A DNA stretch of 64,000 nt, taken from IMG/VR virus record IMGVR_UViG_3300015360_001243, positions 49,999-113,998 of that record; one strand, written 5' to 3'. Within the stretch, counting starts at the first letter, position 1. The number at the start of each line of letters is the position of its first letter. The DNA is from a virus. Its lineage: Duplodnaviria > Heunggongvirae > Uroviricota > Caudoviricetes. Below, piece after piece: positions 3,279-39,402 of this stretch. The position numbers and the translations under genes are program-made. The notes below the pieces were generated by a model. The model worked only from the letters and a program-made list of their open reading frames with translations, was not told the DNA's origin and did no database searches.

Positions 3279-4769
3279 ATGGCCCTGCCTGTTATTAAAG
3301 ATCAGTCTATTATCGACAAGATTAAGGTTGTGGAGTCCGTCAAGCGTTGGACTCTGAACTTTACCGACATCATCAACAACAATAACAAGTTCTACAACCT
3401 TGAAATTGTCAAGTCTACTGACTCCAAGCTGTATCTTTATACAGTTTATGGTCGAGTTGGAGCTAATGGCGCCAAGGAATACAGGTCTTGCGGCTCTTTG
3501 TCTGATGCCGAGAAAGAAGCCGAGAGCATTGTTAAGGCAAAATCCAAAAAGGGTTACGTTGAAGTCAAGCTTGCTAAGGCAGACATTGGCTCTGAGCTTG
3601 GTAAAGCGAAGGTTGATACCTCCGTTACCGTGGAATCCCTTAGGAAAGCGGGCGTTCAAGTTAAGGAAGAACCTCAAGCAGCAAGTAAGCTGCATCCTGA
3701 AGTGCAGGATCTTGTTCGTACGTGGTTCGGCGTTACTCAAGAGTTCATTGAATTGAACCTTGACACCAAGAAGTGTCCTCTTGGACAGCTCTCTCTTGAT
3801 CAAATTGATAAGGCAAAGCAGATTCTTGAAGAGGCTCGCCTGATTGTTGCTGCTAAGAAGCCTGATGTTCAGGAGTTGAACAAGCTAACTAGCTCGTATT
3901 ACTCCAACATCCCTCACGTTCTTGGTCATTGCATCAATGCAGACCTTCTTCGCTTCGATGATAACCCGAAGATTGATAAAGCTTTTGATATTCTTGACGT
4001 CTTTGCTGACGCTAAGAACGTTCAGGCTGTTATTTCCAAGAAGTCTGCGGTCGATTCGCAGTATGCAACCCTGAATGCAGACCTGGAATGGGTGGATCCT
4101 ACGGATCCCACCTTCAAGTGGATTGATAAGATGGTACATGACACACGCGCATACAACCACCAGGGCCTTGGCAAGCTGAAAGTTCACAAGATTTTCCGCC
4201 TCAAGCGAAATAGTGAAGATAAGAACTTCATTGAAACGGCTCAGCGCATTGCTAAGGAGTGTGGAAAGCATTCTCCGTCTGAGACTTACGCTAAGTTGGT
4301 TGCTACTCGCCCTGATGTGCCCAAGGCTCTTCAGGAGCTTTATCAGCATGCCAATGTTGCGCCGGGCTGGCACGGCACTCGTAGAGCTAATATGATTGGT
4401 ATTACGACTAAGGGACTTCTGATTCGTCCTTCTGGCGTCATTCACGCTGGCTCTATGTATGGTGACGGTATTTATTGGGCTACTAATAGTACTAAATCTA
4501 TCAACTACTGTGACGTCAAAGGTTCCTATTGGGCTCAAGGCACCAACAAGACAGCTTATCTGTTCTTGGGTGACGTGGCTTATGGTAACTACAAGTATGC
4601 TAATGGGTCTCATCTTTACACTAAGAAGAATATTGCGCCCGCTCACTCGGTTTTTGCCCGCGCTGGTGGCGGGGTTCTGAATGATGAGCTGATTACTTAC
4701 ACTCCGACTGGCCCTGAGCAGCAACATGCTCTTCGCTACATCATCGAATTTGAAACACAGGTCAAATAA
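3279..4769 (+). CDS. poly/mono-ADP-ribose polymerase homologue (WGR domain + PARP regulatory + PARP catalytic domain)
   Basis: The N-terminal WGR pattern is WTLNF..KFYNLEIV..YTVYGRVGANG..KKGYVEV. The C-terminal catalytic signature is WHGTRRANMIGITTKGL (H-G), HAGSMYGDGIYWATNSTKS (S, Y) and NDELITY (catalytic E), which aligns with PARP1 HGS...GIYFA...YNEYIVY. Confidence 0.85.
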   Translation: MALPVIKDQSIIDKIKVVESVKRWTLNFTDIINNNNKFYNLEIVKSTDSKLYLYTVYGRVGANGAKEYRSCGSLSDAEKEAESIVKAKSKKGYVEVKLAKADIGSELGKAKVDTSVTVESLRKAGVQVKEEPQAASKLHPEVQDLVRTWFGVTQEFIELNLDTKKCPLGQLSLDQIDKAKQILEEARLIVAAKKPDVQELNKLTSSYYSNIPHVLGHCINADLLRFDDNPKIDKAFDILDVFADAKNVQAVISKKSAVDSQYATLNADLEWVDPTDPTFKWIDKMVHDTRAYNHQGLGKLKVHKIFRLKRNSEDKNFIETAQRIAKECGKHSPSETYAKLVATRPDVPKALQELYQHANVAPGWHGTRRANMIGITTKGLLIRPSGVIHAGSMYGDGIYWATNSTKSINYCDVKGSYWAQGTNKTAYLFLGDVAYGNYKYANGSHLYTKKNIAPAHSVFARAGGGVLNDELITYTPTGPEQQHALRYIIEFETQVK

Positions 4770-6432: not shown

Positions 6433-6864
6433 ATGACAATCAAGTTTTATAAAACCAATGAACCCTATGGTTTCTTAAATAATTTCAAAAAAGCTAGAAT
6501 GTTTGTCTATGGTCGTTGGTGGAACAATGTCGAAGCTCCCTATCAATCTCAAAAGACCAATGTTCTTGATGAACAAGATGCTATCTGGGCCTGCGTAACT
6601 CCTAGAGAAGCAAGGGACCTTGGACAAAAAGTTCATATGAGAGAGTTTTGGGACAAATATAAAGACCAGGCTATGTACGAATGCTGTATGGCTAAGTTTC
6701 TCCAGCATCCCGATCTTCGAGCTAAGCTAATGGCAACGGGTGAGGAAGAGATAATGGAAGATAGTCCAGTCGATTGGTATTGGGGATGTGGTAAAGATGG
6801 AACCGGGAAGAATATGCTCGGGAAAACTCTCATGAAAATTCGTGAAGAACTAAAAGGCGAGTGA
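6433..6864 (+). CDS. NADAR-domain protein (YbiA-like; ADP-ribose / NAD-related N-glycosidase)
   Basis: FYKTNEPYGFLNNF, APYQSQKT (cf. SxEHYFQAxK), KFLQHPDLRAKLMATG, SPVDWYWGCGKDGTGKNMLGKTLMKIRE. This is a strong match to the NADAR/DUF1768 pattern. Confidence 0.8.
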   Translation: MTIKFYKTNEPYGFLNNFKKARMFVYGRWWNNVEAPYQSQKTNVLDEQDAIWACVTPREARDLGQKVHMREFWDKYKDQAMYECCMAKFLQHPDLRAKLMATGEEEIMEDSPVDWYWGCGKDGTGKNMLGKTLMKIREELKGE

Positions 6865-7815: not shown

Positions 7816-8622
7816 ATGTCAAGGCACTTAATTCTGTATCGTGGTATCGAATTTGAAAAAGATGAACAGGAAGCTGCTAATTGGTTTTTCAAAACTACAA
7901 ACCGAAGACCTGATATCACCAGCGGTGATATGGTCATAGGGCGATATTCGCTTTGGCCATTCTATTCCGACCAGGCAAAAGACATTGATTATGTTGGGGC
8001 TCGTTTAATCAACGACTACAATCAACATCTTTATGTGGCCGATTTAGGGAATTATGTAACGGATCTTGGAAAGCTTACGCCTCGGACATGGCGAAGCCTG
8101 GAGGATTTGCCCGAGAAAGGACCCTTTGTTCTCAAAGGAGAAACTAACTCGCGCAAATCCAATTGGAAGCGTGACATGTTCGCCGAAACCAAAACAGAAG
8201 CTATCATGGTAGCTAATCGACTGGCAGACGATAGTTTGATCGGTCATCAAAAGATTTACATTCGTCAGTACGTCCCCCTTGTCAAATACATGGATGGAGT
8301 TAATGGTATGCCAGTCACCAAGGAGTTTCGCTTCTTTGTTGCTTTTGGCTTTGTCATTAGTGGTGGATATTATTGGCAAAACTATGTTGATGATATTGGT
8401 GGCACTCCAGATCATAATGAAGTTCCTCGGGAATTTCTTCAAGAAGTCATTGAGGCAGTTGGCGACCAATCTAATTTTTATACAATTGATGTGGGTCAAA
8501 CTGAAACTGGTGAGTGGATTGTTATTGAATTGAATGAAGGTCAACAAGCAGGGCTTTCTTGCAACGATCCTTTTAAATTGTATGAGAACCTAAGTACGGT
8601 ACTTAAAAGCAAAGGCCTGTGA
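7816..8622 (+). CDS. possible ATP-grasp fold protein
   Basis: The C-terminal segment YTIDVGQTETGEWIVIELNEGQQAGL resembles the ATP-grasp D..G..vLEVN..PG motif. This is a weak call. Confidence 0.35.
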   Translation: MSRHLILYRGIEFEKDEQEAANWFFKTTNRRPDITSGDMVIGRYSLWPFYSDQAKDIDYVGARLINDYNQHLYVADLGNYVTDLGKLTPRTWRSLEDLPEKGPFVLKGETNSRKSNWKRDMFAETKTEAIMVANRLADDSLIGHQKIYIRQYVPLVKYMDGVNGMPVTKEFRFFVAFGFVISGGYYWQNYVDDIGGTPDHNEVPREFLQEVIEAVGDQSNFYTIDVGQTETGEWIVIELNEGQQAGLSCNDPFKLYENLSTVLKSKGL

Positions 8623-10410: not shown

Positions 10411-10669
10411 GAATAAGCATTCACATTTGATTGGTCGTACTTTTGGCCAACTCAAACTTGTAGATATTGAAGAATTTAAATCCCTAACTAATAGGCCGGG
10501 ATATAGAATTCATCTTGAATGCAAATGCGGAAAACTTTGTTCATACCCCTTTAAAAGACTAAATGGTATTATGAGGGGCAGCCAGGTGTCTTGCGGTTGT
10601 GTTCGTAAAGATAAGTGGCGCAAAGGCTTTTATGCTTTTATGACTGAGCAAAATAAAGAAGGCAAATGA
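10400..10669 (+). CDS. hypothetical Cys-rich small protein
   Basis: CKCGKLC...CGC motifs. Confidence 0.4.
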   Translation: MMTENKHSHLIGRTFGQLKLVDIEEFKSLTNRPGYRIHLECKCGKLCSYPFKRLNGIMRGSQVSCGCVRKDKWRKGFYAFMTEQNKEGK

Positions 10670-11136
10670 TCGTTTCATTTACAGGGCATAGACCAGATAA
10701 GTTGGGCGGATATCAAATTCCCAACCCAACTTATCGTCATGTTTGCCAGCAGATTGATAAGGTTCTTCGAGAGTTAAAACCAGACAAGATTATTACTGGC
10801 ATGGCTCTCGGAGTAGACCAGTGGGCAGCAAACATTGCTCTCAAGATGGAGATACCCTACATTGCCGCTGTGCCCTTTCTAGGACAGGAGAAGGCCTGGC
10901 CACCTAGTTCTCAAAGGGTATTTAATACATTGCTCAAGTGGGCTAGCGAGGTCGTTATTGTTAGTGAGGGCGACTATCATCCTGCTAAGATGCAGATTCG
11001 TAATGAATGGATGGTCGATAGGGCAGATAAAGTCATTGCTATTTGGGATGGAACCAAAGGTGGGACTGGTAATTGTGTAGATTATGCCAAGTCAAAAAAC
11101 AAGGAAATTATTTTTATTAACCCTCACATTGACTAA
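10666..11136 (+). CDS. SLOG-type Rossmann protein (YpsA/DprA-like, DUF1273-like)
   Basis: TGHRP...GMALGVDQWAANIAL...IWDGTKGGTGNCVDYAK pattern. Confidence 0.4.
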   Translation: MIVSFTGHRPDKLGGYQIPNPTYRHVCQQIDKVLRELKPDKIITGMALGVDQWAANIALKMEIPYIAAVPFLGQEKAWPPSSQRVFNTLLKWASEVVIVSEGDYHPAKMQIRNEWMVDRADKVIAIWDGTKGGTGNCVDYAKSKNKEIIFINPHID

Positions 11137-11178
11137 AAATTACATAGATATTATAGTAATAGACTCACATAGTTACAC

Positions 11179-11262
11179 GCCGAAGTGGTGGAATGGCAGA
11201 CACACTGGATTCAAAACCCAGCGCAGCGATGCATGAGGGTTCGAGTCCCTCCTTCGGCACCA
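11179..11262 (+). tRNA. tRNA-Leu (anticodon CAA), class II with a long variable arm, CCA encoded
   Basis: The acceptor stem GCCGAAG/CTTCGGC is a perfect 7 bp. The T arm is GAGGG-TTCGAGT-CCCTC. The anticodon loop TTCAAAA has an A-C mismatch at positions 31-39. Confidence 0.7.
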
Positions 11263-11289
11263 GTTAATTTCTCTATTTGAAAGACAGAG

Positions 11290-11754
11290 ATGTTTAATAA
11301 CATAAAGAATTTGTTGACCTTGACAGTACGAGTTCAAGACTATAACATAGTCGCACAAGACCCGGCTTTCATCAGGACTCTTCGATTACTTACTTTAACA
11401 CCTACCTCAGGGATGAATTACGAGCTAGATAATTTTGCTCGCATTCGTTTGGAGAGAGATGTCAAATGTAAAATTCTAACTGCTTACCGCAGCAATGAAT
11501 TGGTAGGTTGGGCCCTGGTTTCTAAGGAGCCAACTGATTTTTGTTTCGCTAACGCTTACGCTGGATTCAATCCTAAAGATGGATCTCTCTTTCAAGTTTA
11601 TGTTCAGCCTCAACATCGGCGGCAAGGAATTGCGGCTGAGTTACTAAAAGTTGCAAACGAACACTCTGATAACGGACTATGTGTTTGTCCCTGGGATGAA
11701 ACCAGTGAACTCTTTTATCGGAGAAAAAATAGTTATAACGCAAAATTACTTTAA
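11290..11754 (+). CDS. GNAT-family N-acetyltransferase (start uncertain)
   Basis: GNAT motif A region VYVQPQHRRQGIAAELL. Confidence 0.45.
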   Translation: MFNNIKNLLTLTVRVQDYNIVAQDPAFIRTLRLLTLTPTSGMNYELDNFARIRLERDVKCKILTAYRSNELVGWALVSKEPTDFCFANAYAGFNPKDGSLFQVYVQPQHRRQGIAAELLKVANEHSDNGLCVCPWDETSELFYRRKNSYNAKLL

Positions 11755-11792
11755 ATTCTATAGGAATAAGCTGATATATACGTCAGCATCAT

Positions 11793-11876
11793 GCTACCAT
11801 GGTGGAATGGCAGACACGCTGGTCTTAGAAGCCAGTGCCGCAAGGCGTGGGGGTTCGAGTCCCTCTGGTAGCACCA
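11793..11876 (+). tRNA. tRNA-Leu (anticodon TAG), class II, CCA encoded
   Basis: Acceptor stem GCTACCA/TGGTAGC. The anticodon stem is CTGGT/GCCAG with loop CTTAGAA. The T arm is GGGGG-TTCGAGT-CCCTC. Confidence 0.8.
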
Positions 11877-11879
11877 AAT

Positions 11880-11956
11880 GCTCAAGTGATGGAATTGGCA
11901 TACATACTACTCTCAGAAAGTAGGTTTTAGGAGTTCGACTCTCCTCTTGAGCACCA
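11880..11956 (+). tRNA. tRNA with anticodon CAG (Leu codon CUG) but a short variable arm and a weak D arm; identity ambiguous
   Basis: The acceptor stem GCTCAAG/CTTGAGC is perfect and CCA is encoded. The anticodon stem is CTACT/AGTAG with loop CTCAGAA. The T arm is AGGAG-TTCGACT-CTCCT. The D stem has only about 3 bp. Confidence 0.5.
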
Positions 11957-12202
11957 ATGATTGAATTAATTGATAACTTTATAGTAGGAACTGATCAGCT
12001 TGAATTAGAGGCATTGCAAGTCTTGCTTACCGAATTTTCTCCTGAATTTACCTTTTCAATCCTTGAGAACGAACATCTAGAAGTAGATCCTGCATCATTC
12101 ACTTTGATTATAGAAATACAAAATCCATCTAATTCCCCAGATATGAGTTCTTTTTTAGAGTTTCTTTCAAGTAAAATTGAGGAAGTAAATCAGCAGTCAT
12201 AA
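11957..12202 (+). CDS. highly acidic small protein (DNA-mimic candidate)
   Basis: This 81-aa ORF begins right after the CCA of the upstream tRNA. It is strongly acidic with few basic residues. Confidence 0.45.
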   Translation: MIELIDNFIVGTDQLELEALQVLLTEFSPEFTFSILENEHLEVDPASFTLIIEIQNPSNSPDMSSFLEFLSSKIEEVNQQS

Positions 12203-12207
12203 AGAAT

Positions 12208-12291
12208 GGGATCGTGGCGGAACGGCATACGCACTGGTCTAAGAAGCCAGCACCTCACGGTTTAAGGGTTCAAGTCCCTTCGATCCCACCA
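12208..12291 (+). tRNA. tRNA-Leu (anticodon read as AAG; TAA not excluded), class II, CCA encoded
   Basis: Acceptor stem GGGATCG/CGATCCC. The anticodon stem is CTGGT/GCCAG with loop CTAAGAA. The T arm is AAGGG-TTCAAGT-CCCTT. Confidence 0.7.
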
Positions 12292-12298
12292 AATAGAA

Positions 12299-12335
12299 AA
12301 AGCTTCCAGGGAAACCTAGAAGCTTTATTTATTTT
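12299..12335. terminator. bidirectional rho-independent terminator between convergent transcription units
   Basis: The hairpin AAAGCTTC..(loop)..GAAGCTTT is followed by TATTTATTTT. It sits between the plus-strand tRNA and the stop of the minus-strand gene. Confidence 0.6.
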
Positions 12336-12347
12336 GAATTGAGTAGA

Positions 12348-13235
12348 TTAAAATCCTAGATCAGGTGGTTTTGGTGTATTCTGAGCTACTTGTTGTGCTG
12401 GTTGAGTCGTATTTGGGGTAACAACTGCTTTATCACTGTAAGATGGATCATTGTAGGCAACTTGCATTCCAGGGAATTTTTTCTTGAATTCTTTTCCGGC
12501 AGCTTCTCCAACTTGTGCATCAGGAGTATTGGCAGCCAAAGAAAAATCTTGCTTAAACTTATCAAGAGCCTTACGGGTAGCTGGGCCCAAAGTACCTTCA
12601 GTTCCATTAGTATTGTAACCTAATTGAGTTAAAGCCTTTTGAACATATGGATCAATTTTTCCATATCCACCTGCTGGGCGAGCAGTATTTGCGGCTGGTG
12701 CAGCACCTGGAGTTTGAGTTACATTTCCCTGCCACGCAGTAGCAACGCCTTCTTGTTTACCAACAAGATTAATTGCTTTTTGGTATTGGTCGGGACTAAT
12801 CTGTTGTAGCCTCATTAAAGTAGCTAGATTCTCTGGTTTTTTAGCTAGTTGTTCAGGGGTCATTTGAGCGGGAGAAACACCTTCGCCACCATAATCACGT
12901 GGGCTACCCGACATACGTTGACCAAACTTTGAGATAATAGTATCAAATTGTTCAATAAAAGACTTCTTCTTTGCAAATGGGTTTCCTTTTGCGAATGGGT
13001 TGCCCTTGGCAAATGGATTTGGTTTCTTAGATTTTTTTTCTTTTGAGCCTGACTTGCTTTTCTCGGAAGATGACGTATCTTCTTTCTTAACTGGTTTTTT
13101 GGACTTCTTTTCTTCTTTCTTTTTGGTGCTTTTTTCCAAAGAATCAGAAGCTGTCTTCTCGAAGTTACTTACTAAAAATAAAATTTGATCTGCTTTGTTA
13201 GACATTAAAACCTCTGAGACGGACGTTATATTCAA
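12348..13235 (-). CDS. peptidoglycan-binding-domain protein with a Lys/Glu/Ser-rich N-terminal half and tandem GNPFAK repeats
   Basis: VQKALTQLGYNTNGTEGTLGPATRKALDKFKQDF matches the PG_binding_1 pattern. There is a triple GNPFAK repeat and a KKEEKKSKKPVKK low-complexity stretch. Confidence 0.6.
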   Translation of the reverse strand: MNITSVSEVLMSNKADQILFLVSNFEKTASDSLEKSTKKKEEKKSKKPVKKEDTSSSEKSKSGSKEKKSKKPNPFAKGNPFAKGNPFAKKKSFIEQFDTIISKFGQRMSGSPRDYGGEGVSPAQMTPEQLAKKPENLATLMRLQQISPDQYQKAINLVGKQEGVATAWQGNVTQTPGAAPAANTARPAGGYGKIDPYVQKALTQLGYNTNGTEGTLGPATRKALDKFKQDFSLAANTPDAQVGEAAGKEFKKKFPGMQVAYNDPSYSDKAVVTPNTTQPAQQVAQNTPKPPDLGF

Positions 13236-13361
13236 AACTACTAATAACTAGGCAAGTTTATTGCCAGACCGTATTAATATATGGTGTACGTTGTCATTCA
13301 GTAATGATGGCTGACTGTGAATCAGCTAAAGCGGGGGCAGCACCCGTCGTACACCCCAAAT

Positions 13362-13436
13362 GCCTCGTTCGTCTACTGGCTAGGATGCTAGGTTTTCACC
13401 CTGGCGAAAGGGGATCGAAACCCCTACGAGGTACCA
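13362..13436 (+). tRNA. tRNA-Glu (anticodon TTC), CCA encoded
   Basis: The acceptor stem GCCTCGT/ACGAGGT has a G-U pair at 1-72. The anticodon stem is CTAGG/CCTGG with loop TTTTCAC. The T arm is AGGGG-ATCGAAA-CCCCT. It overlaps the spurious ORF 13304..13618. Confidence 0.55.
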
Positions 13437-13650
13437 TGAGTAAGTTGGTTCTGTTAAGTCTACTTCTAACTGGATGTTTCTTTGATCACCCTCAGTATTG
13501 CCATACTCATGGCGATTGTTTAGATGGTCAGTACTGTCCAGCAATTAGATCGCCAGAACAACTACCGTTGATTTGTAAGGGAAAAGCAATCGTCACTCCA
13601 ATGAAATTGGGCGATTAATCTGTCAATAAGTCGATATATAAAGTACACCT

Positions 13651-13726
13651 GGCCCCATCATCTAATGGTTCAGGATATCAGCCTCTCACGCTGAGTATAC
13701 GGGTTCGAATCCCGTTGGGGTCACCA
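13651..13726 (+). tRNA. tRNA-Glu (anticodon CTC), CCA encoded
   Basis: Acceptor stem GGCCCCA/TGGGGTC. The anticodon stem is TCAGC/GCTGA with loop CTCTCAC. The T arm is ACGGG-TTCGAAT-CCCGT. Confidence 0.7.
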
Positions 13727-13739
13727 AGTAAGTTGTTAT

Positions 13740-13816
13740 GTGCCTGTAATTCAACTGGATAGAAATGCTGCCTTCTAAGCAGTAAGTTGGGGGTTCGAAT
13801 CCCTCCAGGCATGCCA
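13740..13816 (+). tRNA. tRNA-Arg (anticodon TCT), copy 1, CCA encoded
   Basis: Acceptor stem GTGCCTG/CAGGCAT. The anticodon stem is GCTGC/GCAGT with loop CTTCTAA. The T arm is GGGGG-TTCGAAT-CCCTC. Confidence 0.7.
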
Positions 13817-13827
13817 AGCAAGTTTAT

Positions 13828-13902
13828 GTCGTTGTAGTCTAAGGGATAGGCGTCTGCCTTCTAAGCAGAATTATGTAGGTTCGAATCCTACCAGCGATAC
13901 CA
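13828..13902 (+). tRNA. tRNA-Arg (anticodon TCT), copy 2, CCA encoded
   Basis: Acceptor stem GTCGTTG/CAGCGAT. The anticodon stem is TCTGC/GCAGA with loop CTTCTAA. The T arm is GTAGG-TTCGAAT-CCTAC. Confidence 0.7.
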
Positions 13903-13914
13903 GTAAGTTGTTAT

Positions 13915-13991
13915 GTGCCTATAGCTCAACTGGATAGAGCGTCGGTCTACGAAACCGAAGGTTGAAGATTCGAATTCTTCTAGGCATGCCA
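13915..13991 (+). tRNA. tRNA-Arg (anticodon ACG), CCA encoded
   Basis: Acceptor stem GTGCCTA/TAGGCAT. D stem GCTC/GAGC. The anticodon stem is TCGGT/ACCGA with loop CTACGAA. The T arm is GAAGA-TTCGAAT-TCTTC. Confidence 0.75.
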
Positions 13992-14048
13992 GGTTGTGGG
14001 AGATATATCCCTTAATAGATTATGTCCATTAGGTGCCCACGGTCTTAT

Positions 14049-14123
14049 GTCTCTATAGTGAAAAGGATATCACGATTGTCTTCGAAACAATCAGTACAGG
14101 TTCGATTCCTGTTGGAGATGCCA
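14049..14123 (+). tRNA. tRNA-Arg (anticodon TCG), CCA encoded
   Basis: Acceptor stem GTCTCTA/TGGAGAT. D stem GTGA/TCAC. The anticodon stem is ATTGT/ACAAT with loop CTTCGAA. The T arm is ACAGG-TTCGATT-CCTGT. It lies inside the 5' extension of ORF 14033. Confidence 0.75.
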
Positions 14124-14170
14124 TAGCGTCGAGAGGCGCTATTTTTATTTGTATTATTGGAAAAATTATT

Positions 14171-15133
14171 ATGAGAATCCTATCAGGCATTCAGCCATCA
14201 GGAACAATTCATATTGGCAATTACTTTGGAATGATTAAGCCGCTGCTTAGTTTTCAAGATAAGGGTGAAGTGTTTGGGTTCTTGGCCGATTATCATTCAA
14301 TGACCTCTCTCTTCGATGCTAAAGAAAGAAAAGAGAATACTTTAGAGGCTGCCACTACGCTCTTAGCTTGTGGTCTAGATCCTTTAAAGACAACCTTCTT
14401 CAAGCAATCAGATTTGCCCGAAGTAACTGAGCTGGCCTGGATTCTTTCTACTGTAACACCTATGGGCTTGCTAGAAAGATGCCATAGCTATAAAGACAAG
14501 GTAGCCAAAGGAATTTCTTCCAATCATGGGCTCTTTGCCTATCCAGTTCTCATGGCGGCAGACATTCTATTGTACCAATCTAATTTGGTTCCAGTAGGAA
14601 AAGATCAACAACAGCATTTAGAAGTAACCAGAGATATTGCCGTCAAGTTCAATGAGAAGTATGGTAACACTTTTGTTTTACCGGAACCTCTTATTCAAGA
14701 GCAGGTAGCGGTAGTTCCCGGAACTGATGGACAGAAAATGTCTAAGAGCCATGGAAACACTATTGAAGTTTTCGGAGATGAAAAGGTTCTGAAAAAGAAA
14801 ATCATGTCTATCGTTATGGATAGCCGTCCTCCTACGGAACCCAAACCAGATGCAGATAAAAATATTGCCATTCAATTATTGAAATTAGTAGCCCCAGCAG
14901 ATGTAGCTTCAGAAACTGAAATCAAATTACGAGAAGGTAATCTTGGTTATGGTGCATTGAAAGTAATTCTGTTTGAACACTATTACAATTATTTTGAAAA
15001 GCCAAGAGGGCTGTATCGTGAATTGAAAGATAACCCGGCTTATGTAGAGCAGTATCTTCAAGATGGTGCTGAGGATGCTCGTTATCACGCCGCTATAACT
15101 ATGGGACTCGTTAGAAAAGCTGTAGGCTTGTGA
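14171..15133 (+). CDS. trpS: tryptophanyl-tRNA synthetase
   Basis: MRILSGIQPSGTIHIGNYFG (HIGH-type motif), PVLMAADILLY, VPVGKDQQQHLEVTRD and KMSKS. This is a close match to the bacterial TrpRS layout. The start is moved to 14171 because the longer ORF overlaps a tRNA. Confidence 0.92.
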   Translation: MRILSGIQPSGTIHIGNYFGMIKPLLSFQDKGEVFGFLADYHSMTSLFDAKERKENTLEAATTLLACGLDPLKTTFFKQSDLPEVTELAWILSTVTPMGLLERCHSYKDKVAKGISSNHGLFAYPVLMAADILLYQSNLVPVGKDQQQHLEVTRDIAVKFNEKYGNTFVLPEPLIQEQVAVVPGTDGQKMSKSHGNTIEVFGDEKVLKKKIMSIVMDSRPPTEPKPDADKNIAIQLLKLVAPADVASETEIKLREGNLGYGALKVILFEHYYNYFEKPRGLYRELKDNPAYVEQYLQDGAEDARYHAAITMGLVRKAVGL

Positions 15134-26383: not shown

Positions 26384-27496
26384 ATGCATTCTGTGCTTGA
26401 AACTATTATGAAACGAAGCCCACACCTTGATTGGATTGAGAAAGGCACTGTGTTATTGGTTCGACACGGCTCTCATGCCTATGGCACCAACACGGCCACT
26501 TCTGATGAGGACTTCAAGGGAGTTGCTATTCCGCCCCAGAAATACTTCTATGGTTACACTCATAGGTTTGAGCAAGCTGAATTGAAGGCTCCCGATGATG
26601 ATGCCGTCATCTACGACATTAGGAAGTTCTTTAACCTAGCTGCCGACTGTAACCCCAACATCATTGAAGTTCTTCATACCGATCCTTCAGATCACTTCAT
26701 TGTGTCACCGATTGGTAGAACGATCCTTGATCATAAGGATGCCTTTCTTTCAAAGAAGATTAAGCATACCTTTTTGGGTTACTCGGTCTCTCAGCTTAAG
26801 AGAATTAAGACGCATAAGCGTTGGATCATGGATCCGCCTTCATCGCCTCCTACTAGGGCATCTTTGGGTTTGCCCGAGCAGACTCTGATTCCTCAGGATC
26901 AACTGATGGCAGCTACTGCTGAAATTCAAAAAGAACTAGATAGATTCCAGCTTGACTTTATGGAAAAGCTGGATGAGTCAGATAAGATTGAAGCTCGTGG
27001 AGTCTTAGCTAGCATGGTTGCTGAGTTGAAGATTACTTCCGATGAGCATTTTGGTGCAACGGCCCGTAAGATTGGTTTGACTGATAACTTCATTCAAATC
27101 ATGCAAATGGAGCGTCAGTACACCGGAGCTAAGCGTGAATGGGACCAGTATCAAAACTGGAAGAAGACCCGTAACGTTAAGCGCTCTGAGCTTGAAGAGA
27201 AGTACGGTTACGATACGAAACACGCATATCATCTTGTAAGGCTAATTCGCATGTGTAGAGAGGTTCTTTTGACTGGTAAAGTTATTGTGAAGCGCCCTGA
27301 CCGTGAGGAGCTTCTAGCCATCCGCAATGGCGCCTGGACTTATGAACAACTCATTGAATTCGCCGAGAGGGAAGATATTGCGTTGAATGAGCTGTATAAC
27401 AGCACGACCATCCTTCCCAAGGTTCCTAACAAGGAAAAACTAGATCAGCTTTGTATTAAGTTGATTGAACAATTCATGTCTATTGGAGTAAAGTAA
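26384..27496 (+). CDS. Pol-beta-superfamily nucleotidyltransferase
   Basis: The N-terminal VRHGSHAYGTNTATSDEDF fits the NTase GS...DxD motif. The C-terminal half is predicted helical. Confidence 0.5.
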   Translation: MHSVLETIMKRSPHLDWIEKGTVLLVRHGSHAYGTNTATSDEDFKGVAIPPQKYFYGYTHRFEQAELKAPDDDAVIYDIRKFFNLAADCNPNIIEVLHTDPSDHFIVSPIGRTILDHKDAFLSKKIKHTFLGYSVSQLKRIKTHKRWIMDPPSSPPTRASLGLPEQTLIPQDQLMAATAEIQKELDRFQLDFMEKLDESDKIEARGVLASMVAELKITSDEHFGATARKIGLTDNFIQIMQMERQYTGAKREWDQYQNWKKTRNVKRSELEEKYGYDTKHAYHLVRLIRMCREVLLTGKVIVKRPDREELLAIRNGAWTYEQLIEFAEREDIALNELYNSTTILPKVPNKEKLDQLCIKLIEQFMSIGVK

Positions 27497-27497
27497 A

Positions 27498-27884
27498 ATG
27501 ATACCGGCCGCTCTCTCATCGGCAATGCCAATTCTTATTGGACTTGCTCTAGCTTATATGTTGTTTTCAATTTTCTTTTCTGATGCAATCAAAGAGAAAA
27601 TGGCTAGCAACGAAGCTATTAAAGTAAAGCAATCTAGCTTAGATAAAATTGCTAGAGTGAAGATGGTCTCCGAAGATCCGAAAGATATTGAGAAGTTTAT
27701 TACGGATAATGCTCAATATCTCTCGGAAGGAATGGTTGCAGGTTTAGTGGGCCGCATCGAGATGATTCGAACAGATCGAATTATCAGCGATGACAATATG
27801 TTGAAGAAACGTATTGATGCTTTAGATCCGGTTGAAATTGATGAAGAGCCTGTAGTTCTCAAGAAAGTGGCTAGGAAACGATAA
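27498..27884 (+). CDS. hypothetical membrane-anchored protein
   Basis: N-terminal transmembrane helix. Confidence 0.4.
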   Translation: MIPAALSSAMPILIGLALAYMLFSIFFSDAIKEKMASNEAIKVKQSSLDKIARVKMVSEDPKDIEKFITDNAQYLSEGMVAGLVGRIEMIRTDRIISDDNMLKKRIDALDPVEIDEEPVVLKKVARKR

Positions 27885-28450
27885 TGGGAAAAGCAATGAA
27901 TAGACAAGTTCTCGTCGTTGATGTCGAGAGCACCTGTTGGGAACCGCCTGAGTTCCAAGGCAAAGATGAAATCTCTGAAATAATTGAGATAGGTATCGCG
28001 GTTGTTGACATTGATAAGTTAACGATTATTGAAAATGACAGTATTATCATTAAGCCCCAAAGGTCAAAAGTCAGTAAATTCTGTACCAAATTAACTACTC
28101 TTACTCAAGAGTATGTGGACCAAGGGACCACCTTCCAGGCCGCTATGGAAATTCTGAGAAAGAATTATAATTCTCAGAATCGAACCATGGTAAGTTGGGG
28201 CGACTATGATCGAAAGATGTTTGAGAGGAACTGCGCCGACTATGGAGTCAAATACCCCTTTGGTCCTCGCCATATGAATCTTAAAAATACTTTCGCCATT
28301 TTTGAGGGGCTGGGCAGGGAACCGGGCATGGATGCCGCTTTAGGGCACCTGAGACTAAACCTGGTGGGTACGCATCATCGTGGAATAGATGATGCTCGAA
28401 ACATTGCTGAGATCTTTTGTAAGATAATTAAGATGTATCGTGTTGACTAA
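27884..28450 (+). CDS. DEDDh 3'-5' exonuclease (DnaQ/RNase T/oligoribonuclease-like)
   Basis: Exo I VVDVESTCWE, Exo II WGDYDRKMF and Exo III HRGIDDARN. Confidence 0.75.
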   Translation: MGKAMNRQVLVVDVESTCWEPPEFQGKDEISEIIEIGIAVVDIDKLTIIENDSIIIKPQRSKVSKFCTKLTTLTQEYVDQGTTFQAAMEILRKNYNSQNRTMVSWGDYDRKMFERNCADYGVKYPFGPRHMNLKNTFAIFEGLGREPGMDAALGHLRLNLVGTHHRGIDDARNIAEIFCKIIKMYRVD

Positions 28451-32666: not shown

Positions 32667-33143
32667 ATGAAGTATCCGAAAGTTCCAACCAAACCTTATG
32701 CCCCGTACAAACCTCAACCTCCTGCCAAGCAGATTGAGAAGAGTACGCCTATTGGCTCTACTGATTTTCATGAAGATTGCTCATATTCCCTTCAATCTTT
32801 TGAAGAATTTATTAAGGCCAATTCCACCGGAGCAACTCCTTCTGATGTCAAATTCTCTTGGGAAATTGAGAAAGAACCAACTTATTACGATGAGACTATT
32901 ATCTCACTCAAGATTAAATTCTTTACGGTTGCCTTGATTGATAATCCGCAGTATGATAGGCTGTATGCTTATTACGAAGAGCACCTAAAGAAGTATGAGA
33001 AAGATTATCAGAAGTATCGAGACAATCTAAAGCAATATAAGATCGATGAAATCCGTTACAAGGATGACCTTGAAACATGGACTCTTGATAATGCTAAAGA
33101 AACTATCAAAAGATTAGAAGCTAAAAAAGGTAAGAAAAAATGA
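32667..33143 (+). CDS. hypothetical protein
   Basis: ORF. Confidence 0.4.
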   Translation: MKYPKVPTKPYAPYKPQPPAKQIEKSTPIGSTDFHEDCSYSLQSFEEFIKANSTGATPSDVKFSWEIEKEPTYYDETIISLKIKFFTVALIDNPQYDRLYAYYEEHLKKYEKDYQKYRDNLKQYKIDEIRYKDDLETWTLDNAKETIKRLEAKKGKKK

Positions 33144-34075
33144 GTAAGGTTATAATGGTGGTCGGTTATCCGGCTTCAGGTAAGAGCACCCTCACCAAGG
33201 ATCTAGTGGCCAAGGGCGCCGTCTCCCTCAATCGAGACACGGAAGGTGGAACGATTGCCGCCCTGCTCCCCAAGATGGAAACTCTGTTGTTAGCCGGCAA
33301 AGATGTTGTACTTGACAACCTCTTCGTCAATCGTGAAGTCCGCAAACCCTTTATCGATATGGCTAAGAAGCATGACGCGGACATCTCCTGCCAATTGATG
33401 GGAACTTCAATTGAAGATGCCCAATTTAACGTAGTTCAAAGAGCCATCGGCTTGATTGGTAAATTTCCGACTCCGGAAGCCATTAAAGAGGCCAGGCATA
33501 CTAATATCTTTCCTCCTCTAGTTCTTTTCAAATACAAGAAAGAGTTTGAGAAGCCCACGACTGACGAAGGTTTCTCTAAAGTTGATCTGGTTAAGTTTGT
33601 TCGCAAGCAAGATCCATCATTCACCAACAAAGCTATTATTGTAGATTACGACGGAACGCTTCGTGAATGTATCAATGGTAATGATAAGTATCCGCTTACT
33701 GAAGATCAAGTTGAAATTAAGCCTGGACGTAAGGCGGTCCTTGACGACTACAGGGCGAAGGGTTATCATTTGCTCGGGCTCTCTAATCAAAGTGGCATTG
33801 CAAAGGGCGAGTTGAGCTATGACAAAGCAACTGACCTTTTCAATCATACCAATAAGCTACTTGGAGTTGATATCGAGTTTCGATTCTGCTCTCATCAATC
33901 TGCCCCTATCTTTTGTTACTGTAGAAAACCTATGAATGGCGTGGGCGTTGAATTCATTATGAAACATAAGCTCAGTGCTAGAGATTGTATCATGGTAGGC
34001 GACATGACCACCGACAAAACCTTTGCAGCACGTTCCGGGTTCCAGTACGTTGACCAGGCGGATTTCTTTAAATGA
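33140..34075 (+). CDS. polynucleotide 5'-kinase / 3'-phosphatase-like (P-loop kinase + HAD phosphatase), Pnk paralogue
   Basis: N-terminal Walker A GYPASGKST and C-terminal HAD motif IIVDYDGTL (DxDGT). Confidence 0.7.
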   Translation: MSKVIMVVGYPASGKSTLTKDLVAKGAVSLNRDTEGGTIAALLPKMETLLLAGKDVVLDNLFVNREVRKPFIDMAKKHDADISCQLMGTSIEDAQFNVVQRAIGLIGKFPTPEAIKEARHTNIFPPLVLFKYKKEFEKPTTDEGFSKVDLVKFVRKQDPSFTNKAIIVDYDGTLRECINGNDKYPLTEDQVEIKPGRKAVLDDYRAKGYHLLGLSNQSGIAKGELSYDKATDLFNHTNKLLGVDIEFRFCSHQSAPIFCYCRKPMNGVGVEFIMKHKLSARDCIMVGDMTTDKTFAARSGFQYVDQADFFK

Positions 34076-34338
34076 AAAGAAAGTTCAAAATTACTTTTGA
34101 GGTTGATTGCAATTACCCTTCTATTCATAAAGAAACTAAAAGACTTGCAAAAACTTTTGATGACTGGCTTCAAGATTGGGCAGATAGTGATAGTGCTCCC
34201 AAAGACATAATTCCAATATTATATACTGGCGCCCCAGGAATTGAGCACCAACCTAATGGAACTGTTAGAGTAAAAATTATAAGAGATGAAGAAATTATTC
34301 TTGATACATGGTGGGATGATCTATCAGATGATTTTTGA
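34072..34338 (+). CDS. hypothetical small protein
   Basis: ORF with an ATGA overlap. Confidence 0.35.
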   Translation: MKRKFKITFEVDCNYPSIHKETKRLAKTFDDWLQDWADSDSAPKDIIPILYTGAPGIEHQPNGTVRVKIIRDEEIILDTWWDDLSDDF

Positions 34339-34350
34339 AAAGTAAAATAA

Positions 34351-34833
34351 ATGAAATGTACTTCCTGCACATATCTCATAACTCGGGAGCCAGCAACAGA
34401 TTGTCAGTCTATTGCGCACTGGAAAGAGTGGGCCATTCTCCTTCAAGATAAACTTGAAAAACACGATGATGATCGTGACAAACTTGATGTGGCTGAGTGG
34501 CTAGAATCATATGAAAAAGTAAAAGATTATAAATGTCATGGATGTGGCAGGGATTATAATCTACCTACTCACATAGATCATTTTACTTGTGTTTGTGGCC
34601 ATCGTTCCAGATTGCGTCATTTGGGAGGGATGAACCCAGATCAGGCAGTTATAGACGCGGCAATAAGATATTTTGGTAATGAACGTTCGGCTCAATTGGC
34701 GTGGATTGCTGAGGTAGTTGGTGGACAGCACTGTTTACACTATACTGCTGATGAAATTAGAAACATGATTCGTCGAGAAATGGACCGTTGGATCCAAACT
34801 GATAGTGGATGGGAAAGAAAAGCGAGTAAGTAG
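34351..34833 (+). CDS. hypothetical Cys/His-rich (zinc-binding?) protein
   Basis: CTSC, CHGCG and CVCGH clusters. Confidence 0.4.
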   Translation: MKCTSCTYLITREPATDCQSIAHWKEWAILLQDKLEKHDDDRDKLDVAEWLESYEKVKDYKCHGCGRDYNLPTHIDHFTCVCGHRSRLRHLGGMNPDQAVIDAAIRYFGNERSAQLAWIAEVVGGQHCLHYTADEIRNMIRREMDRWIQTDSGWERKASK

Positions 34834-35002
34834 AATGATTGGTATCCAAGAGTTTAAAGGCGACCTGATCAAAATCGAACAGTTTCTAAACACAGACGCT
34901 GTAAAATTGGGTTGGAAAGTTTTATCTATTCAAAAGGTTCGTTGCTGGTATATATTCGGACCTGATGAGTACTTTGTCACATATGAGAAAGAAGATAAGT
35001 AA
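34805..35002 (+). CDS. hypothetical small protein
   Basis: ORF. Confidence 0.3.
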   Translation: MDGKEKRVSRMIGIQEFKGDLIKIEQFLNTDAVKLGWKVLSIQKVRCWYIFGPDEYFVTYEKEDK

Positions 35003-35003
35003 A

Positions 35004-35975
35004 ATGTTGAAGATTATCCTAACTGTTGGTATTCCGGCTTGTGGCAAGTCTACTTGGTCCAAAGAAGAGGTCAAGAAAGCGCCAGAGAAGGTTACGCGCA
35101 TCAATAGAGACGATCTACGTACGATGATGAGTAATTACCATTTTTCTGACGCTAATGAGAAGTTGGTTACCTCCACCAAAGAGTTCTTGCTACGCCAAGC
35201 ACTTCGCTATGGACGAGACGTCATCATTGATGAAACCAACCTCAATCGTCGAAACTTTGACGATGTGGTCAAGATCGTCAAGGATATGAACCTTGACTGT
35301 ATGGTAATGGAGAAACCTTTCTACGTTGAATTGGACGAAGCTATCGCTCGCGATAAGGAACGTCAGGGTGCTGGTTACGTGGGCGAGAGCGTTGTTCAGA
35401 AATTCTGGAAGAAGTCTGGTGGAAAGCAGCACAAACACTACAAGCCAAGGGTAGAAATTTGCCAGAGGCAGACTGAAGCCTCAGTAGCAGCGGCCGAAAT
35501 CTCTTTCAAGTCTCATCTTCCTACGGCCATTGTCTGTGACCTTGATGGAACTATTTCTCTCTTTAACTCAAAGAGAAGTGATGGATCAGTAGATGTTCGT
35601 CACTCTAAGGCGCACACCCGTAGCCCATACGATGCATCTAAGTCTGATGAAGATATGTTGAATGAGCCGGTTGCCTTAGTCATTGAAGCTATGTTCAATG
35701 CAGGTCACCATATTATTTTTTGCTCTGGTCGAGAAGATACTTATCGTGAGCAAACAGAACGCTTCCTTAAGAAGCACTTGAATATTCAGTACACTCTTCT
35801 TATGAGAAAAGGCGAAGACCTTCGCAAGGATTCGATTATCAAGTCGGAGATTTACGACGGACATATTGCTCCTAATTACAACGTCTTGTTTGTTCTAGAT
35901 GACCGTAATCAAGTGGTTGATCTATGGCGAAGCAAGGGACTATCATGTTGGCAGGTTGCCCCAGGTAATTTCTGA
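35004..35975 (+). CDS. pseT: polynucleotide kinase-phosphatase, T4 Pnk (pseT) orthologue
   Basis: MLKIILTVGIPACGKSTW..INRDDLR is near-identical in pattern to T4 Pnk MKKIILTIGCPGSGKSTW..INRDDYR. HAD motif IVCDLDGT. The C-terminal VLDDRNQVVDLWRSKGLSCWQVAPGNF aligns with T4 [26 protein letters not shown]. Confidence 0.9.
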   Translation: MLKIILTVGIPACGKSTWSKEEVKKAPEKVTRINRDDLRTMMSNYHFSDANEKLVTSTKEFLLRQALRYGRDVIIDETNLNRRNFDDVVKIVKDMNLDCMVMEKPFYVELDEAIARDKERQGAGYVGESVVQKFWKKSGGKQHKHYKPRVEICQRQTEASVAAAEISFKSHLPTAIVCDLDGTISLFNSKRSDGSVDVRHSKAHTRSPYDASKSDEDMLNEPVALVIEAMFNAGHHIIFCSGREDTYREQTERFLKKHLNIQYTLLMRKGEDLRKDSIIKSEIYDGHIAPNYNVLFVLDDRNQVVDLWRSKGLSCWQVAPGNF

Positions 35976-36068
35976 CATAATAATTTTTTATATGAATAAT
36001 CGCATATTGGAGCAATCTCCGAAACCAGCCGTTCAAATCAATTTTTGAAATTGGTGGTTTTTTAACAA

Positions 36069-36096
36069 TTGACATCCTAATTCGGATGATTAACAT
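36069..36096 (+). promoter_or_regulatory. possible sigma70-like promoter upstream of the RNA ligase gene
   Basis: TTGACA at 36069-36074, a 16-nt spacer and a weak TAACAT -10. Confidence 0.3.
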
Positions 36097-36107
36097 TAGA
36101 ACTAGAT

Positions 36108-36863
36108 ATGAAGCTGCCACGAACTTTACACATTGAGGGCTCCCGCCTTCCAGCCGGAGGCACAGATCCCGAGGCCATTGAATTTAATAAACTGAAAGAC
36201 CAATTTCTTGTAATTGAAGAGAAGGTTGATGGAACGGGTGTGTCCATTAGCCTTGACAAGCATTTTGATCTTAATATCAATCACCGAGGGTCAAAAGCCA
36301 TTGGTAAAGAATTTAAAGCTCTTTATGATTGGGCAGAAGACAATTGGGAAGACCTCGTCTATCTATTAGGTGAACGCTACACTCTCTTCGGAGAGTGGAT
36401 GCAGAATAAACATACTATCTTTTACGATAAGCTTCCCCATCGATTCCTTGAGTCAGATATCTATGATAGAGAAAAGAAAATTTGGCTTTCCACTAGTGCC
36501 CGCAATAATCTTTTGAATGGTGCCAAGTTTGTCAAGCAAGTTCCAGTAATTGCGGCCATGAAGCCCTCGGCTCTTTGGCAAGTCACTCAACTAGTTGGTA
36601 AGACAGCTTACCAGTCTCCGGAGTGGCAGAAGACACTTAAAGTTAAGTCGCAAATGTTCGGAGCCGATTATCAGAAGGTTCTATCTGAGACAGATCAAAC
36701 TGGAATGATGGAAGGCTTGTATATCAAGCATGAAGATGATTTTCAAGTTGTAGGTCGCTACAAATATGTAAGACATGAGTTTCTTCAATGTATTCTTAAT
36801 TCAGGATCTCATATAATGAATAGGCTACCAGTTTATAATGCGTTGGAGGGAGAAACATTCTAA
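36108..36863 (+). CDS. ATP-dependent RNA ligase, Rnl2-like nucleotidyltransferase domain
   Basis: Ligase motif I EEKVDGTGVS (KxDG). The 251-aa size matches the Rnl2 catalytic domain. Confidence 0.6.
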   Translation: MKLPRTLHIEGSRLPAGGTDPEAIEFNKLKDQFLVIEEKVDGTGVSISLDKHFDLNINHRGSKAIGKEFKALYDWAEDNWEDLVYLLGERYTLFGEWMQNKHTIFYDKLPHRFLESDIYDREKKIWLSTSARNNLLNGAKFVKQVPVIAAMKPSALWQVTQLVGKTAYQSPEWQKTLKVKSQMFGADYQKVLSETDQTGMMEGLYIKHEDDFQVVGRYKYVRHEFLQCILNSGSHIMNRLPVYNALEGETF

Positions 36864-37108
36864 TGATATTCGGAATCGCAATGTTAGTTGTGATTTACAT
36901 TCTGTGGGTGCTTTTTGTTGAAGGAGCACTCTGGAAAATTATCCTCTTCTTTGCCGGCTGGTTCGGCATTTACCTCGGAATGAAGGTATATATAGATGGC
37001 GCTGAAAAAATCTGTATGACCATTACAGATTACGATTTTAGTTGGGCCGCTGTGGTTCCGACCGTCGTTTGTATTATGGCCCTTCTAACCACTAAGGTAA
37101 AAGAATGA
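36863..37108 (+). CDS. hypothetical small membrane protein
   Basis: Two transmembrane helices; ATGA overlaps. Confidence 0.4.
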   Translation: MIFGIAMLVVIYILWVLFVEGALWKIILFFAGWFGIYLGMKVYIDGAEKICMTITDYDFSWAAVVPTVVCIMALLTTKVKE

Positions 37109-37512: not shown

Positions 37513-37514
37513 AA

Positions 37515-38777: not shown

Positions 38778-38788
38778 TATAGAAAATT

Positions 38789-38823
38789 AAAGGGGTTAGC
38801 TTCCCAGCTAACCCCTTTCTTTT
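38789..38823 (+). terminator. rho-independent terminator after rnlA
   Basis: AAAGGGGTTAGC-TTCCCA-GCTAACCCCTTT followed by CTTTT. Confidence 0.85.
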
Positions 38824-38826
38824 ACC

Positions 38827-39378: not shown

Positions 39379-39402
39379 TGGCATTCTGATATATAAATAA
39401 GT

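Follow-up and report, generated by a model that had tools for sequence, protein, structure and literature searches.

Introduction

According to Al-Shayeb et al. (2020, PMC7162821), uncultured phages with very large genomes carry numerous tRNA genes in clusters, different from those of the host, together with host-related aminoacyl-tRNA synthetases, tmRNA, initiation factors, and genes for tRNA ligation. We describe such an island in a 64,000-nucleotide stretch of the Caudoviricetes record IMGVR_UViG_3300015360_001243 (positions 49,999 to 113,998; hereafter the window), where ten tRNA genes for Leu, Glu, and Arg lie at 11179-14123. The window holds all of the gene types listed above, and adds an isoacceptor-ordered layout, tRNAs whose anticodons begin with A (A34), and altered elbows, none of which is described in the main text of PMC7162821. 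The cluster forms the core of an island of tRNA genes that has been inherited vertically in an uncultured huge phage. Islands of tRNA and translation genes have already been described for huge phages, and this one is another example rather than a different category. The features worth recording are its amino acid-ordered and evolving layout, A34 tRNAs for Leu and Thr, a short-arm tRNA-Leu, the altered elbows of a His-like and a Glu tRNA, and G1.U72 in nearly all Arg tRNAs of the clade.

The window also resembles phage T4 in combining rIIA/rIIB-like genes and a tRNA cluster with a polynucleotide kinase-phosphatase (PNKP) and an Rnl1-type RNA ligase, both of these repair genes being predicted from sequence. 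In T4, Pnkp and Rnl1 repair tRNA-Lys cleaved by PrrC, and the eight phage tRNAs comprise one anticodon per amino acid. The window differs in that its families each comprise two to five isoacceptors, it encodes RlaP and Thg1-like proteins and more than one ligase, and it contains no tRNA-Lys.

A further likeness is with the large tRNA arrays of lytic phages that have been proposed or shown to sustain translation when host tRNAs are cut. Mycobacteriophages of cluster C1, whose codon usage equals that of the host, are proposed to carry nuclease-insensitive tRNAs (PMC10264068). The tRNA-Lys of T5 is reported to act against PARIS (PMC11464382) and its tRNA-Tyr against retron effectors (PMC11555353). 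In these systems phage and host tRNAs could be compared; here, the phage and its inferred host lineage differ strongly in codon usage. The classical hypothesis, summarized in PMC10264068, holds that phage tRNAs compensate for codon usage. The window agrees with it in that its tRNAs match codons used more than in the host lineage, the most enriched of which, AGA, has two genes. It departs from it in carrying tRNAs for host-preferred codons as well and none for TTA, so that compensation alone is an incomplete account. Gene by gene, the analysis traces the way in which one lineage of uncultured huge phages has built and remodeled its own decoding set: amino acid order is conserved in the clade, anticodons often switch within a family, and gene dosage tracks the codon demand of the phage.

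The tRNA genes

Genes for tRNAs were detected with ARAGORN and with the Rfam covariance model RF00005 (gathering score 29 bits). Over the whole window, ARAGORN reports 16 tRNAs and one tmRNA, and Rfam recovers the same genes plus one tRNA at 54330-54401. Relaxed ARAGORN settings added only matches inside coding regions, and Rfam in E-value mode added nothing new. The initial annotation of this sequence had placed ten tRNAs within 3 kb and had proposed that all of them encode CCA. Both programs recover the ten at the same coordinates and with the same anticodons, at RF00005 scores of 45.3 to 65.9 bits, and the gene sequences bear out an encoded CCA in every case.

All ten genes are on the plus strand and are ordered by amino acid. 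The Leu block comprises tRNA-Leu(CAA) (11179-11262, 54.9 bits) and tRNA-Leu(TAG) (11793-11876, 56.9 bits), both class II, followed by tRNA-Leu(CAG) (11880-11956, 54.5 bits), which has a 5-nt variable loop and a class I shape, and the A34 tRNA-Leu(AAG) (12208-12291, 53.8 bits). Next come tRNA-Glu(TTC) with an A54 T loop (13362-13436, 45.3 bits) and tRNA-Glu(CTC) (13651-13726, 61.2 bits). The Arg block contains two copies of tRNA-Arg(TCT), the first with a G1.U72 pair (13740-13816, 55.5 bits) and the second at 13828-13902 (60.0 bits), then tRNA-Arg(ACG) with the anticodon loop CUACGAA (13915-13991, 65.9 bits) and tRNA-Arg(TCG) (14049-14123, 62.0 bits). It had been thought that the AAG anticodon might be reassigned to TAA and that the genes at 13362-13436 and 11880-11956 might fall below threshold; the anticodon is unchanged and both scores exceed 29 bits.

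Five more plus-strand genes, likewise expected from the initial reading and found by both programs, score 45.4 to 51.8 bits. Four form a Thr array, namely tRNA-Thr(TGT) (48292-48365, 49.6 bits), tRNA-Thr(GGT) (48369-48442, 51.8 bits), the A34 tRNA-Thr(AGT) (48516-48590, 50.4 bits), and tRNA-Thr(CGT) (48681-48754, 45.4 bits). The fifth is tRNA-Arg(CCT) (56592-56669, 47.3 bits). If standard wobble rules apply and reading by I34 or U34 is assumed, the combined set would make every Glu, Arg, and Thr codon and five of the six Leu codons decodable without host tRNA. The proposal that whole codon boxes are covered is thus largely upheld as a description of this phage, but not as a conserved design, membership being variable among relatives. 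The main array is interleaved with four coding sequences instead of the two first counted, and the minus-strand gene at 12348-13205 divides it into two co-directional units.

Related loci and inheritance of the island

The ATPase gene adjacent to the array has counterparts in 22 IMG/VR loci at 70-85% identity, several of them on contigs of 350-452 kb. These contigs, together with the rIIA/rIIB-like genes and PHROG matches in the window, point to a phage of more than 200 kb as the bearer of the island. The window DNA itself matches a JGI metagenome contig; contigs of 27 kb and 153 kb are recorded for it, the 153-kb one with an identical IF3. In the GenBank phage set no close relatives were found by DNA or protein, the best ATPase match being 23-25% identical. 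Wherever the region is present in the relatives, the array runs Leu, His (in some), Glu, and Arg, with a membership of anything from one tRNA to thirteen.

The closest match of each window tRNA among the relatives is 73-93% identical, and its anticodon is the same in 14 of 16 cases, Thr-AGT and Thr-CGT being the exceptions. Because such counterparts, mostly with unchanged anticodons, are present in the relatives, the island is considered old and vertically inherited. Orthologs of Leu-CAA (77-79% identity) occur in three related loci (L008, L023, and L020), Arg-TCG is 93% identical to the gene at L013 7792, Thr-TGT has an ortholog at L029 10862 (82% identity), and Arg-CCT has orthologs in L027 and L028. 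Thr-CGT is most similar to Thr-TGT (76% identity).

Codon usage and the likely host

The standard genetic code yields the best gene model, with 84% coding density. Over 18,113 codons the phage prefers those ending in U or A (CTT, ACT, CGT, AGA, GTT, TCT, and GCT), with relative synonymous usage of 1.69 for CTT, 1.83 for ACT, 1.54 for CGT, and 1.77 for AGA. The array is flanked on the plus strand by a gene for tryptophanyl-tRNA synthetase (TrpRS; 14171-15133, PF00579, E = 1e-58), whose product is 63-70% identical over its full length to TrpRS of Verrucomicrobiota (Limisphaerales, Pedosphaera, Verrucomicrobiales, and Opitutaceae). Because of this affinity, Verrucomicrobiota is the likely host phylum. 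A search with IF3 as a second host marker returned phage-clade proteins only. TrpRS was the sole host clue found, and tRNA-Trp is absent from the window.

As a proxy for the host, 80 Verrucomicrobiota TrpRS loci (1.2 Mb) were used; their GC content averages 0.61, versus 0.41 for the phage. Ratios of phage to host-lineage usage were calculated within each amino acid, with the Verrucomicrobiota DNA standing in for the host. AGA is the most enriched codon (11.7) and is served by two genes. Cognate tRNAs are also present for CTA (7.0), ACT (4.9, Thr-AGT), AGG (2.6), CTT (2.2, Leu-AAG), CGT (2.0, Arg-ACG), ACA (1.9), and CGA (1.5), whereas TTA (9.7) has none in the window. The host-preferred codons without a cognate tRNA are CTC (0.24), CGC (0.34), and CGG (0.11). 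Overall, a Watson-Crick cognate exists for 10 of 11 phage-enriched codons and for 4 of 7 host-preferred ones, a comparison made with a proxy host over 18 codons, too few for a test. The pattern persists when only the 12 best TrpRS loci are used, and its direction is the same in two low-GC loci.

Function of the tRNA set

The precursors would presumably be matured by host RNase P and 3' trimming. Charging by host synthetases is likewise presumed, because identity elements are kept: A73 and the D arm in the Leu tRNAs, G-1:C73 in the His-like tRNA described below, and A20 and C35 in the Arg tRNAs. The two AGA genes would serve the most enriched codon, and the A34 tRNAs Leu-AAG, Thr-AGT, and Arg-ACG would pair in Watson-Crick fashion with the favored CTT, ACT, and CGT. 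Further tRNAs would read CTA, ACA, CGA, and AGG, and the C34 tRNAs, Glu-CTC, and Thr-GGT would complete the families. In our view the main function is probably supply matched to codon demand, and freedom from reliance on the host tRNA pool is a by-product or second benefit. The initial annotation had argued for a strategy other than simple codon-usage compensation. This contrast is not sustained: codon matching accounts for most of the set and its dosage, phage and host-lineage usage differ strongly, and such matching cannot be dismissed because AGA, CTA, ACT, CTT, and CGT, all used more by the phage than by the proxy host, have matching tRNAs.

Several observations weigh against demand matching. 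TTA, the second most enriched codon at 9.7-fold, has no tRNA in the window, and Leu-CAG, Thr-CGT, Thr-GGT, and Glu-CTC read host-preferred codons with ratios of 0.24-0.73. The host is deduced from one gene, the usage comparison covers 18 codons and has no statistical power, and not one of the 19 tRNAs in the 80 Verrucomicrobiota loci (1.2 Mb) is specific for Leu, Glu, Arg, or Thr. The genome is much larger than the window, which covers about 64 kb of it. Sigma-70-like promoter matches in the region are pattern matches only, their number not exceeding the shuffled expectation.

The gene content is also open to a less likely, though by no means fanciful, explanation as counter-defense, in which near-complete families sustain translation after anticodon nucleases cleave the host tRNAs or host shut-off depletes them, and the RNA-repair enzymes act as a second line. 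Decoding of Glu, Arg, and Thr is complete, tRNAs are present even for the host-preferred CTG, ACG, ACC, and GAG, and several tRNAs have unusual elbows or variable regions. The window encodes an RNA-repair toolkit (PNKP-like, Rnl1-like, PF09414, RlaP, RNase T-like, Thg1-like, and PTH2 proteins) of the kind that T4 uses against PrrC. The hypothesis itself is published (PMC10264068), and the T5 tRNAs reported to act against PARIS and retron effectors provide experimental precedents (PMC11464382, PMC11555353). On the other hand, the anticodon loops look ordinary, as with CUACGAA in Arg-ACG, and the window has no tRNAs for Lys, Tyr, Asn, or Asp, the nuclease targets that are known best. Full families are not kept in the relatives, some loci having one or two tRNAs, and the strong difference between phage and host-lineage codon usage is unlike the mycobacteriophage case. 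Once the host is known, codon matching and counter-defense become separable in a concrete system.

The same variability could reflect mostly neutral turnover, with duplication and anticodon point changes in a permissive large genome and the complete families an unselected snapshot. Array membership varies widely among relatives, the closest relatives at times have another anticodon (Thr AGT/GGT, Leu CAG/TAG, and Arg ACG/TCT), the spacer AGTAAGTT..TTAT repeats between tRNAs as duplicated units would, and the T loop of the His-like gene is degenerate. We nevertheless consider this improbable: most anticodons have counterparts with the same anticodon at 73-93% identity even though the phage proteins are only 70-85% identical, stems are kept through compensatory changes, the set follows phage codon usage, and two divergent Arg-TCT lineages are both retained. 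Very unlikely indeed is recoding, in which the short CAG tRNA or the A34 tRNAs would be charged with a non-cognate amino acid and alter the meaning of CUG or other codons. The CAG tRNA does lack the long variable arm typical of tRNA-Leu, and two CTA suppressor tRNAs elsewhere in the window show that the phage manipulates decoding. But every Leu determinant of the E. coli type is present in the short tRNA (compare PMC9976931), and a long-arm tRNA at L016 8063-8147 occupies the corresponding place in its array, has the same anticodon, and resembles the short tRNA in its acceptor stem. The CTG codons of the phage TrpRS gene fall on invariant Leu columns at two of five sites, with no consistent alternative residue, and the coding density given above was obtained with the standard code.

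A tRNA-Leu without the long variable arm

tRNA-Leu(CAG) is 77 nt long and has the variable loop GUUUU in place of the long arm that defines class II. It has the three-pair D stem and D loop of bacterial tRNA-Leu type, the loop holding GAAUUGGCAUA, and retains A14, A15, G18G19, A20a, U48, and A73. According to a review (PMC9976931), E. coli leucyl-tRNA synthetase (LeuRS) recognizes A73, A14, A15-U48, G18G19, and A20a, and the long arm is dispensable. The elements A73, A15-U48, G18G19, and A20a are all found in the phage sequence. Because E. coli LeuRS does without the arm, its loss lowers membership in the class by shape and not the likely Leu identity. Judged from its sequence, tRNA(CAG) is a tRNA-Leu that lost its variable arm. 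Reassignment of CUG by this tRNA was considered and rejected on the basis of the TrpRS codon positions and the identity elements.

Orthologs occur in L013 and L023 (CAG) and in L004 (TAG), and the cloverleaf is kept by compensatory changes, with double changes at 5 of 15 predicted pairs across 4 sequences. L023 also contains a second short-arm Leu tRNA (6612-6688), with the anticodon AAG.

The idea that the short form is unique to this phage is rejected. Homologous tRNA-Leu genes of 74-77 nt are annotated in the cultured Aeromonas phage APT65 (OP491958) and Providencia phage PR1 (KY363465, Demerecviridae), and blastn matches also fall under annotated tRNA-Leu genes in Vibrio and Proteus phages. 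The APT65 and PR1 genes align with Leu-CAG without gaps and share with it the D arm GTGAYGGAATTGGCATACRT, the 5-nt variable loop, and A73. They differ in having TAG or TAA anticodons instead of CAG, and come from other phage families and hosts. As tRNA-Leu is stated to keep its long arm in all organisms except animal mitochondria (PMC9976931), phages are an overlooked exception to this rule, yet one already in public records. The short-arm tRNA-Leu, shared with T5-like phages, and the A34 tRNAs for Leu and Thr offer material for studies of tRNA identity and wobble.

Anticodon switches and remodeled tRNA shapes

Anticodons have switched within families. The short Leu tRNA reads CAG here and TAG in L004, and the bodies of Arg-ACG and Arg-TCT tRNAs cross-match. 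The two Arg-TCT copies of the window are 72% identical, with different bodies and the same anticodon arm, and both lineages are present in L013. Thr-AGT is closest to Thr-GGT at L029 11003 (78% identity), which suggests that G34 was exchanged for A34 in favor of the Thr codon that the phage uses most. In sampled relatives, the Thr tRNAs downstream of the Thg1-like gene are Thr-GGT only or Thr-TGT and Thr-GGT. Because these relatives have one or two Thr tRNAs, the set of four anticodons is read as a recent expansion specific to this phage. A closer relative was sought for the Thr array, and the contig L112 begins downstream of it.

At least 10 related loci carry Leu-AAG, and none of the sampled arrays has Leu-GAG. 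Apart from Arg-ACG, anticodons with A in the first position are reported to be nearly absent from prokaryotes (bioRxiv 10.64898/2026.05.15.725136); TadA-dependent Leu-IAG has been reported for some bacteria. The H/CAE...PCxxC motif of a tRNA adenosine deaminase, which might convert the A34 tRNAs to I34, was not found in any frame of the window.

The T loop of Glu-TTC, ATCGAAA, has A54 and is conserved in most orthologs; this unusual loop explains the low score of 45.3 bits. Compensatory double changes are observed at 18 of 21 helix pairs across 12 related sequences. The G1.U72 wobble is the first acceptor pair in all five Arg tRNAs of the window (13740-14123 and 56592-56669) and in most Arg tRNAs of the clade, and it occurs in Glu-TTC (13362) as well. 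Variable arms have been both gained and lost within the clade: in relatives, tRNA-Arg(ACG) genes of 83-88 nt have an extra stem-loop in the variable region (L008 7304-7391, L009 8631-8713, L018 9113-9197, and L023 7576-7661). Thr-AGT (48516-48590) and the Thr-GGT of L029 (11003-11077) have an odd elbow in common, with the D loop TTCAGTGATA and the T loop TTTGATT, in which an A19-U56 pair may take the place of G19-C56.

We tentatively suggest, as a possibility well short of probable, that the island is more than a bacterial tRNA set taken over, that the lineage evolved the A34 anticodons of Leu-AAG and Thr-AGT to read its preferred U-ending codons directly, and that it may have altered the shape of its tRNAs to escape host enzymes that recognize this shape. 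The suggestion draws on the short-arm Leu tRNA, the A54 Glu tRNA, the replaced T loop of the His-like gene, the conservation of Leu-AAG in the clade, and the retention of Thr-AGT, itself newly derived from a Thr-GGT gene, beside another Thr-GGT. If it is true, the clade would offer a natural setting in which to ask why prokaryotes avoid ANN anticodons.

A tRNA-His-like gene between the Leu and Glu blocks

A plus-strand element at 13283-13358 resembles tRNA-His(GTG) and encodes CCA. It has an encoded G-1, and its 7-bp acceptor stem is extended to 8 bp by G-1:C73. The D, anticodon, and T stems are perfect, the anticodon loop is CUGUGAA, and the minimum-free-energy fold is a cloverleaf. The T loop reads GGCAGCA rather than TTCGAAT, and the D loop is without the GG pair. 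The element is missed by ARAGORN, including the relaxed settings, and by RF00005 even at E <= 10.

A covariance model was built from eight His tRNAs of relatives, with the window sequence excluded. Applied to the window, it places 13283-13358 at the top with 69.1 bits (E = 2e-14), above all other tRNAs. Relatives have tRNA-His(GTG) at the same place, between the Leu and Glu blocks, and L004 contains a canonical ortholog that is likewise missed by ARAGORN. Variation within the population was sought as a measure of constraint on the element, but the two additional contigs, L002 and L003, show 100% identity with the window. We describe the element as a tRNA-like gene that may be either functional or decaying.

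Interleaved genes and putative signals

The first unit would consist of Leu-CAA, a GNAT acetyltransferase gene, Leu-TAG, Leu-CAG, an 81-amino acid open reading frame (ORF), and Leu-AAG, and the second of the His-like gene, Glu-TTC, a small ORF, Glu-CTC, and the four Arg tRNAs. The GNAT protein (11290-11754, plus strand, 154 amino acids; PF00583, E = 8e-9; phrog_1249) yields generic acetyltransferase matches only, with neither a specific solved relative nor a specific role indicated. The 81-amino acid ORF (11957-12202, plus strand) starts directly after the CCA of Leu-CAG; it is a gene call in the JGI record and has no family match. The minus-strand gene at 12348-13205 encodes a 285-amino acid protein with a peptidoglycan-binding domain (PF01471). 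The small ORF of the second unit (13436-13618, plus strand, 60 amino acids) has a lipoprotein-type signal, LLLTGC, and its ATG overlaps the final A of the Glu-TTC CCA.

Promoter-like motifs appear to mark the start of each unit, and a hairpin its end. A sigma-70-like match on the plus strand (TTGACT-17-TATAGT, 11129-11157; 10 of 12 consensus positions) lies about 20 nt upstream of Leu-CAA. A 12-bp hairpin at 12299-12326, after Leu-AAG and between the convergent units, is terminator-like on the minus strand, and a plus-strand terminator-like hairpin with a T run (14123-14142) directly follows the last tRNA, Arg-TCG. The eight-base motif GATATATA is found 13 nt upstream of Leu-TAG (11773-11780) and 11 nt upstream of Glu-CTC (13633-13640), both on the plus strand. 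Its six copies in the window (2300, 11773, 13633, 39388, 51708, and 54637) are all intergenic and on the plus strand, 8-20 nt before a tRNA or start codon. In related loci it has a strand bias of 46 to 10 and there too precedes tRNA sub-arrays, which makes it a candidate for a promoter element specific to the phage. Between tRNAs, the sequence (A)GTAAGTT(G)TTAT is repeated in the spacers right after CCA, in four window copies (13437-13449, 13727-13739, 13817-13827, and 13903-13914), and the CCA-spacer combination recurs in L013 and L018. This repeat may be a trace of duplication or may serve as a signal for processing.

Translation and RNA-repair genes

The RNA-repair cluster noted in the initial annotation is real. 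Repair and translation genes lie within 26384-28450, 33140-41449, 46944-47735, 52824-53135, and 56047-56583. They comprise an RlaP nucleotidyltransferase, an RNase T-like exonuclease, two PNKP-like proteins, an Rnl1-like ligase and two PF09414 ligases, a Thg1-like protein, PTH2, and IF3. One PNKP-like gene (33140-34075) combines AAA_33 and PNK3P, and the other (34965-35975) AAA_33 and HAD_PNKP (E = 2e-44); the Rnl1-like ligase gene (37515-38777) matches RNA_lig_T4_1 (E = 6e-15). The predicted toolkit fits a phage under pressure from RNA-targeting host defenses. By the overall count, 18 tRNA genes co-occur in the window with TrpRS, tmRNA, IF3, PTH2, a Thg1-like protein, and one tRNA-like gene. 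The tmRNA (49181-49532, plus strand) is one-piece, scores 123.6 bits with Rfam, has the tag peptide ANDNAFAPLALAA, and lies just downstream of the Thr array. In two related phage contigs from NCBI assemblies (L110, GCA_040384245.1, and L111, GCA_040384165.1), two ribosomal protein L7/L12-like genes stand inside the same tRNA island (L110 6472-7274 and L111 1069-1870), and the Arg tRNAs are downstream of TrpRS.

Two tRNAs with the amber-suppressor anticodon CTA lie on the plus strand. Only Rfam detects the one at 54330-54401, whose T arm is odd, and the one at 54552-54626 is without an encoded CCA; pairs of CTA tRNAs are also present in L027 and L029. Among 103 predicted ORFs, TAG is the stop codon of 3, TAA of 59, and TGA of 41. 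Stop-codon recoding within the window was rejected: the standard code performs best, no convincing in-frame TAG occurs in any window gene, and the three TAG-ended ORFs are without readthrough. TAG may be recoded in late genes elsewhere in the genome.

Beside the tRNA island lies a group of genes that together form an ADP-ribose and NAD conflict toolkit. It consists of a eukaryote-like PARP with WGR, regulatory, and catalytic domains (3279-4769), a NADAR domain protein (6433-6864), an R2K ATP-grasp protein (7816-8622), a YpsA/SLOG protein (10666-11136), and a Macro domain protein (42862-43377).

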